Assembly: GCF_044647545.1 (NCBI RefSeq)
Contig: NZ_CP172818.1
Source of the DNA: Escherichia coli
GTDB taxonomy: Bacteria > Pseudomonadota > Gammaproteobacteria > Enterobacterales > Enterobacteriaceae
DNA: 64,000 nt
Direction: 5' to 3' (one strand)
In this document: piece by piece, positions 36,045 to 36,545 of the stretch
How the letters are laid out: each line of letters opens with the position of its first letter
Numbering within the stretch: position 1 is the stretch's first letter
Program-made: the position numbers and the translations under genes
Notes under the pieces: model-generated
What the model was told of the DNA's origin: nothing
Databases searched by the model: none
What the model saw: the letters and a program-made list of their open reading frames with translations, nothing else

Positions 36045-36545
36045 AGGCGGGGGGAAAATGGCCAAAAGGATGACGGCTGATCCGCGCGGGGGTTGCGGGA
36101 ATTTATCGAGTCCCTAATTGAATCGGGGCCACCCCCAACCAAAAGGAAAGGGACCCGGGGAGCCCCCCCTCCTACTCGAAAAAAAAAAAGAGGTCCCCCC
36201 CCCGGCGGCGGGTGGGGGGGGGGGGGGGGGGGGGGGGGGGAGGGGCGAGGGGGAGAAAAGGGGTGTTTAGGAAAAAAGAAAAAAGAAAAAAAAAAAAAAT
36301 ATAAAAAAAAAAAAAAAAAAAAAAAAAAAAGAAAAAGGAGAAGGAATGGATGGTAAATCCCGCAACGAAAAAAAAAAAAGAAAAGTAATTTCATTAACAT
36401 ATAAAAAAAAAAAAAATAAAAAAGAACGACAAGAAGAAAAAAGATGATTGTTTTTTTTTTCTTCCTTCCGAAGAAATTATTTCATTTACACAAGCAAAAA
36501 AGAAAATAAATTCAAAAAAAAAAAAAAAAAAGAAAGAAAGAAAAG
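36045..36545. repeat. Low-complexity block with extreme homopolymer runs (probable sequencing/assembly or synthetic artifact)
   Basis: G-run of 27 at 36214-36240, A-run of 28 at 36303-36330, plus long T-runs and AG-only stretches; listed ORFs here translate to poly-F/K/G strings. Confidence 0.7.

Follow-up and report, generated by a model that had tools for sequence, protein, structure and literature searches.

What produced the homopolymer-rich block between yegP and yegQ in the stretch of Escherichia coli DNA analysed here (64,000 nt, hereafter the window), and does it stand for real DNA? The sequence-only reading had described a run of 27 G, a run of 28 A and other homopolymer runs at 36045-36545, and a run count over the whole 64 kb found them as described: the 27 G lie at 36214-36240, the 28 A at 36303-36330, and seven further runs in the block measure 9-18 nt (A11, C9, A14, A12, A14, T10 and A18). 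All nine runs of at least 9 nt in 36179-36531 are part of the block, and every run of at least 10 nt in the 64 kb is confined to this interval. Outside the block the longest runs reach 8-9 nt, and two of them (10440-10448 and 10632-10639) lie inside a second, milder block described below. A 79-kb comparison stretch of K-12 MG1655 holds zero runs of at least 10 nt, thus the run lengths of the block are not attributable to chance. In the core of the block, 36170-36544, A makes up 54% and C 9% of the bases; the native sequence of the locus has 31% and 22%, respectively.

The native sequence was recovered by alignment with complete E. coli genomes at yegP-yegQ, a check that had been proposed together with the sequence-only reading: the flanks of the block matched 5,423 of the 5,426 genomes and the closest relatives carried parD and parE at the site, while the block itself matched in none. 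In these closest relatives (IMT16316, Ecol_881 and others), the gap between yegP and yegQ holds two 98-aa genes annotated as ParD antitoxin and RelE/ParE toxin, and native parD and parE are present there in every genome whose flanks are at least 99% identical. The native antitoxin matches the NCBIfam model TIGR02606 ParD at 87.6 bits (cutoff 46.2); the native toxin found no match in NCBIfam, but did match Pfam PF05016 ParE_toxin with E=1.3e-12. Together the two genes form an island of ~757 nt that is an insertion relative to K-12 MG1655. The island is polymorphic: parD-like sequence occurs at yegP-yegQ in 1,844 of the 5,426 complete genomes, and the island is missing from K-12, O157:H7 and many B2-type genomes, in which the flanks are at most 96% identical to those of the window.

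The block derives from this operon. It had been stated that no gene explains the block, a claim that fails, for the native parD-parE operon of close relatives aligns in register beneath it (z ~8 against block-shuffled controls; for the collapsed core at 36170-36544, z=8.2 over block-shuffled native sequence and z=6.1 over random genome segments). The suggestion that the block stands in place of native sequence was borne out, native parDE occupying the site in close relatives. The features of the locus are as follows.

35852-36562, plus strand: the parDE island as seen in the window, 711 nt here and ~781 nt in native form between the same K-12 anchors.
35906-36544, no strand: the blurred stretch, bounded by the outermost differences from native sequence in the alignment to Ecol_881.
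36068-36302, plus strand: remnant of parD (antitoxin), with the native ATG retained at 36068 and the ORF destroyed.
36214-36240, plus strand: the run of 27 G, over a native 31-nt segment with 42% G.
36303-36330, plus strand: the run of 28 A, over a native segment with 46% A.
36303-36551, plus strand: remnant of parE (toxin), of which only the last 7 nt (GAGCTAA) are intact, with the stop codon at 36549-36551.
36545-36562, plus strand: the right anchor, where native identity is back to 100%; GAGC is common to K-12 (CCAGAGCC).

Remains of the operon can still be read within these limits. The peptide REFIESLIESG of parD is legible inside a junk ORF, surviving stretches of parD-parE include TTGCGxGAATTTATCGAGTCCxTAATTGAATC, and the similarity to native sequence persists to the far right end of the block instead of decaying to noise. 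Intact ParD (TIGR02606) and ParE (PF05016) ORFs are absent from the window copy, which yields junk ORFs only, whereas both are intact in relatives. Compared with the ParD/ParE module (PF05016, TIGR02606) that many E. coli lineages carry as a chromosomal island at yegP-yegQ, the block agrees in position, length, start codon, stop codon and residual similarity, and differs in that both ORFs are destroyed.

The degradation is directional. While the block had been taken to start at 36045, the alignment to Ecol_881 places its beginning earlier, with single-base deletions already at 35906-36030, where isolated G or T are lost inside runs of another base. From 36045 to 36170, neighbour-copy substitutions prevail, such as GGCGGGCGTAAAA to GGCGGGGGGAAAA, and from 36170 to 36544 the sequence collapses into homopolymers. 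Native identity per 40 nt falls along the block from 1.0 to 0.93, 0.83 and 0.64 and then stays at 0.43-0.65, thus decay from the left is gradual, and recovery at 36545 is abrupt. The alignment to native sequence contains 76 deletions versus 11 insertions, the block copy is 65 nt (9%) shorter than the native one, and 89% of native A are retained, compared with 52-64% of C, G and T. Eight of the nine runs consist of the base that is most frequent in the native segment aligned with them (control mean 2.8, P ~0.0005), a count that is partly circular, as alignment favours placing like with like. When the native sequence is smoothed by local majority, nearly all runs come out with the right base and in the right order. 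Since the run bases track native composition in this way, the 27 G are the G-rich part of parD after smoothing and not a no-signal artefact.

The position of the blur depends on the coordinates of K-12 MG1655. Homology to K-12 stops at ~35847-35851 and resumes at ~36545-36563, bracketing the block. The window contains only two insertions relative to K-12, and the second one is blurred as well, so that the earlier statement that nothing like the block occurs elsewhere in the window has to be withdrawn: 10444-10821 is the same phenomenon in milder form, with the first error at ~10444, heavy damage from ~10560, abrupt recovery at ~10822, and runs of A9 and A8. Over successive distances, identity to native sequence reads 1.0, 0.96, 0.96, 0.92, 0.74, 0.76 and 0.68 in the second island and 1.0, 0.92, 0.98, 0.90, 0.82, 0.82 and 0.66 in the parDE block, nearly the same curve. 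Three features away from the parDE locus belong here.

10359-10863, plus strand: second island absent from K-12, in relatives an HTH protein and a RelE/ParE remnant.
38170-38173, no strand: scar ACAC at a K-12 deletion junction, 4 nt, placed against the K-12 block boundaries.
56348-57517, no strand: exact K-12 patch, a fimbrial-adhesin (yehA) allele of 1170 nt with 0 differences from K-12 MG1655.

In the 2 kb on either side of the yehA patch, the window differs from K-12 at 76 and 53 positions, and the patch coincides with a segment that is unalignable between the window and Ecol_881. The mosaic around it was found in no public genome, the best match being 99.5%. We read the patch as putatively retained backbone sequence, though natural recombination could alone account for it. 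The segment was also considered as a second synthetic region and rejected as such, for the allele looks natural (99.5% identity to public genomes) and is exactly that of K-12. Scars of a similar kind, 1-3 nt long, were found at 17733, 22020 and 46442. Outside the anomalies the window is 99.97-100% identical to genomes of the Ecol_881 type, and five of the eight residual difference events relative to Ecol_881 coincide with structural junctions of K-12 or with the border of the K-12 patch (17733, 22020, 38170-38173, 46442 and 57443); the other three (3199, 41633 and 59572) resemble ordinary variants or errors. The sequenced strain is a close relative of Ecol_881, ECONIH1 and MS6198. A close relative without the island was considered as the backbone and rejected: none of the close relatives lacks it, the genomes without the island being at most 96% identical in the flanks. 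Ecol_881 also carries an IS110-family insertion of ~1.56 kb (reference segment 9416-10973) beside the second island, which the window lacks near ~10165-10172; this may be either a true absence in the strain or a loss by K-12-guided consensus.

Both insertions relative to K-12 are blurred, the unalignable allele is exactly that of K-12, and scars lie at K-12 deletion junctions, thus the cause of the anomalies is tied to K-12 coordinates. The sequence-only reading had favoured a sequencing or assembly artefact or synthetic filler over a true insertion. Its preference for an artefact over real DNA stands, while the causes that it named, two-colour poly-G and arbitrary filler, do not, as the effect follows K-12 coordinates and not read chemistry.

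A second, independent record shows the same effect at the same site. HS-01 (NZ_CP172817.1), a RefSeq 'complete genome', has its own blurred parDE at ~2095050-2095565 of the record, which differs in sequence from the block of the window and shares its right boundary. Its 28-A run covers the 3' end of parD, where purines abound, and stands opposite the A14 run of the window at 36286-36299 and just upstream of the 28 A of the window, and no CDS is annotated in the smear. HS-01 carries hallmarks specific to K-12, namely wbbL::IS5 in the O16 cluster, gatR::IS3 and CP4-44, and over 150 kb compared with K-12 the parDE island is its only insertion and its only junk block, all deletions being clean. 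By these sequence features HS-01 looks like a consensus scaffolded on K-12 and not a free assembly. Several frameshifted genes were also seen in HS-01, and a literature search on the isolate found nothing relevant. A further record with a Nissle-type label, EcN_Sk (NZ_CP172017.1, 1798160-1811459), has protein accessions identical to those of K-12 MG1655 over yegV-metG (yehA, yehB, yehC, yehD, yegX and metG), and a Nissle 1917 record differs in behaviour at yegP-yegQ; EcN_Sk may likewise be K-12-guided, or else mislabelled.

We therefore consider, with a probability of about 0.9, that the block does not represent real DNA and is parDE in smeared form, from a consensus that was built on a K-12 MG1655 backbone without the operon. 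On this account reads would have been laid on the backbone, so that the island of ~760 nt became one long insertion at a single reference coordinate, and the inserted bases would have been piled up starting at the left anchor, with the reads not realigned to one another. Small indel errors would then push the reads progressively out of register with distance, and each consensus column would be decided by a vote across an ever wider stretch of the true sequence, giving a low-pass-filtered copy in which isolated bases are lost first, bases then adopt the identity of their neighbours, and finally the locally commonest base alone remains. The 27 G would thus arise over a G-rich stretch and the A-runs elsewhere because A is the commonest base, and register would be restored at once at the right anchor. 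Tools of the medaka type put inserted bases in left-justified minor columns. The software was probably a medaka-like pileup consensus and the reads were probably long and indel-prone.

The account was simulated as a left-justified majority consensus of noisy reads, starting from native sequence with a longest run of 5 nt. The simulated consensus contained runs of 20-40 nt and was 56-70% identical to native sequence, compared with 68% observed, and at ~0.5-1% indels per base it matched the decay curves of both blocks; a left-anchored blur fitted the block better than a right-anchored one. The simple model underpredicts the excess of A (32-36% simulated, 42-54% observed) and the 9% net shortening, which would have to come from a trained neural or deletion-biased consensus caller. 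A deterministic blur that widens with the square root of distance, with the top-scoring base taken at each position, was tried and rejected: its overall identity was 0.687 against 0.684 for native sequence, which is no gain, and it over-smooths the first 200 nt, thus the informative parts of that comparison are the core comparison, the run order and the controls only. Reference bias in reference-guided consensus is the known behaviour closest to the window: in both, anomalies are confined to insertions relative to the backbone, with small scars at deletions, unalignable alleles keep the reference sequence, and the blur is directional from one anchor, while HS-01 shares with it the retention of backbone-specific IS elements. 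The point of difference is that plain majority-vote simulation falls short of the A excess and net shortening of the block.

Two other artificial origins have to be weighed against the smeared consensus. The block could be synthetic and have been inserted into an actual genome, be it as filler, as deliberate corruption or as what a generative or denoising sequence model produced; homopolymer collapse is a known failure mode of sequence generators. This origin is further favoured by the finding of no public copy of the block: an exact look-up of its seven junk ORFs among 15 billion proteins returned none, and its exact 36- and 46-nt patterns were absent from the GTDB representative genomes and the JGI metagenomes, as was the block from the complete E. 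coli genomes. However, the block follows the true local sequence in register, as a smear of it and not as arbitrary filler, all anomalies of the window are organised by K-12 MG1655 coordinates, which a generator has no reason to respect, and a deposited RefSeq genome, HS-01, shows the same thing; we regard a synthetic origin as improbable. Somewhat less probable still is an origin in read chemistry, either as poly-G from absent signal in two-colour sequencing or as an untrimmed low-quality read tail built into a contig and joined to the next one. While the long G-run and the gradual loss followed by abrupt return do resemble a decaying read, the A, C and T runs follow native composition just as the G-run does, similarity to native sequence holds to the far right end, the second block lies at the other K-12 insertion and lacks poly-G, and the exact K-12 patch and the scars at K-12 junctions are left unexplained. 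In addition, HS-01 has the same locus-specific effect, and the block (~640 nt) exceeds short-read length. The Illumina two-colour artefact (NextSeq/NovaSeq) has the long G homopolymer in common with the block, but here the G-run is one of nine composition-tracking runs in a 640-nt in-register smear. The smear lies internally between perfect flanks, away from any read or contig end, and its position depends on K-12 coordinates.

That the block is real DNA, with parDE decayed in vivo to simple-sequence tracts through localised hypermutation or slippage, seems scarcely credible. It would gain from the degradation of two strains, that of the window and HS-01, at the same locus, and in its biological form it would require an unknown 'homopolymerising' hypermutation that struck parDE and the island with the RelE/ParE remnant, spared the flanks and occurred in two E. 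coli lineages independently, a form to which we give hardly any weight either. The flanks are 100% identical to those of relatives up to the boundaries; C, G and T all change to the local majority base, and deletions outnumber insertions by 76 to 11; tracts of 27-28 nt would be very unstable; an unrelated island shows this decay too, which is confined to K-12 insertions; and among the 1,844 genomes with parD at the locus none is degraded except HS-01, which is K-12-scaffolded. To our knowledge, the substitution pattern of the block fits no known mutational process, including deaminases and the adenine mutagenesis of DGRs. Biological hypermutation by a DGR or a deaminase was rejected on the substitution spectrum. 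The locus was also considered as phase-variable, and no complete genome contains the block, the only similar case being the K-12-scaffolded HS-01. The contingency loci of Neisseria, Haemophilus and Campylobacter resemble the block in having homopolymer tracts near or within genes; they differ in that theirs are single tracts of ~8-20 nt whose position is conserved from isolate to isolate while their length varies, whereas the block consists of many tracts that replace coding sequence and is absent from all 5,426 complete genomes.

For the biology of the strain, the smeared consensus means that the window copy is a corrupted representation and says nothing on the strain's own genes or their function; the sequenced strain most likely, if not almost certainly, carries an ordinary parDE type II toxin-antitoxin module. 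The block itself is not a real feature and holds no biological novelty, and its value is that of a data-quality warning only. Both the record of the window and that of at least one RefSeq 'complete genome' (HS-01, NZ_CP172817.1) have the appearance of a consensus scaffolded on K-12. In records of this kind accessory islands are lost or smeared, IS insertions and alleles of K-12 persist although foreign to the isolate, and junk ORFs and spurious simple-sequence DNA arise. Such records can mislead surveys of pangenomes, toxin-antitoxin systems and mobile elements as well as models trained on public genomes. A simple screen for them is to look for blur that runs in one direction wherever there is an insertion relative to a reference, together with exact reference patches and junction scars.
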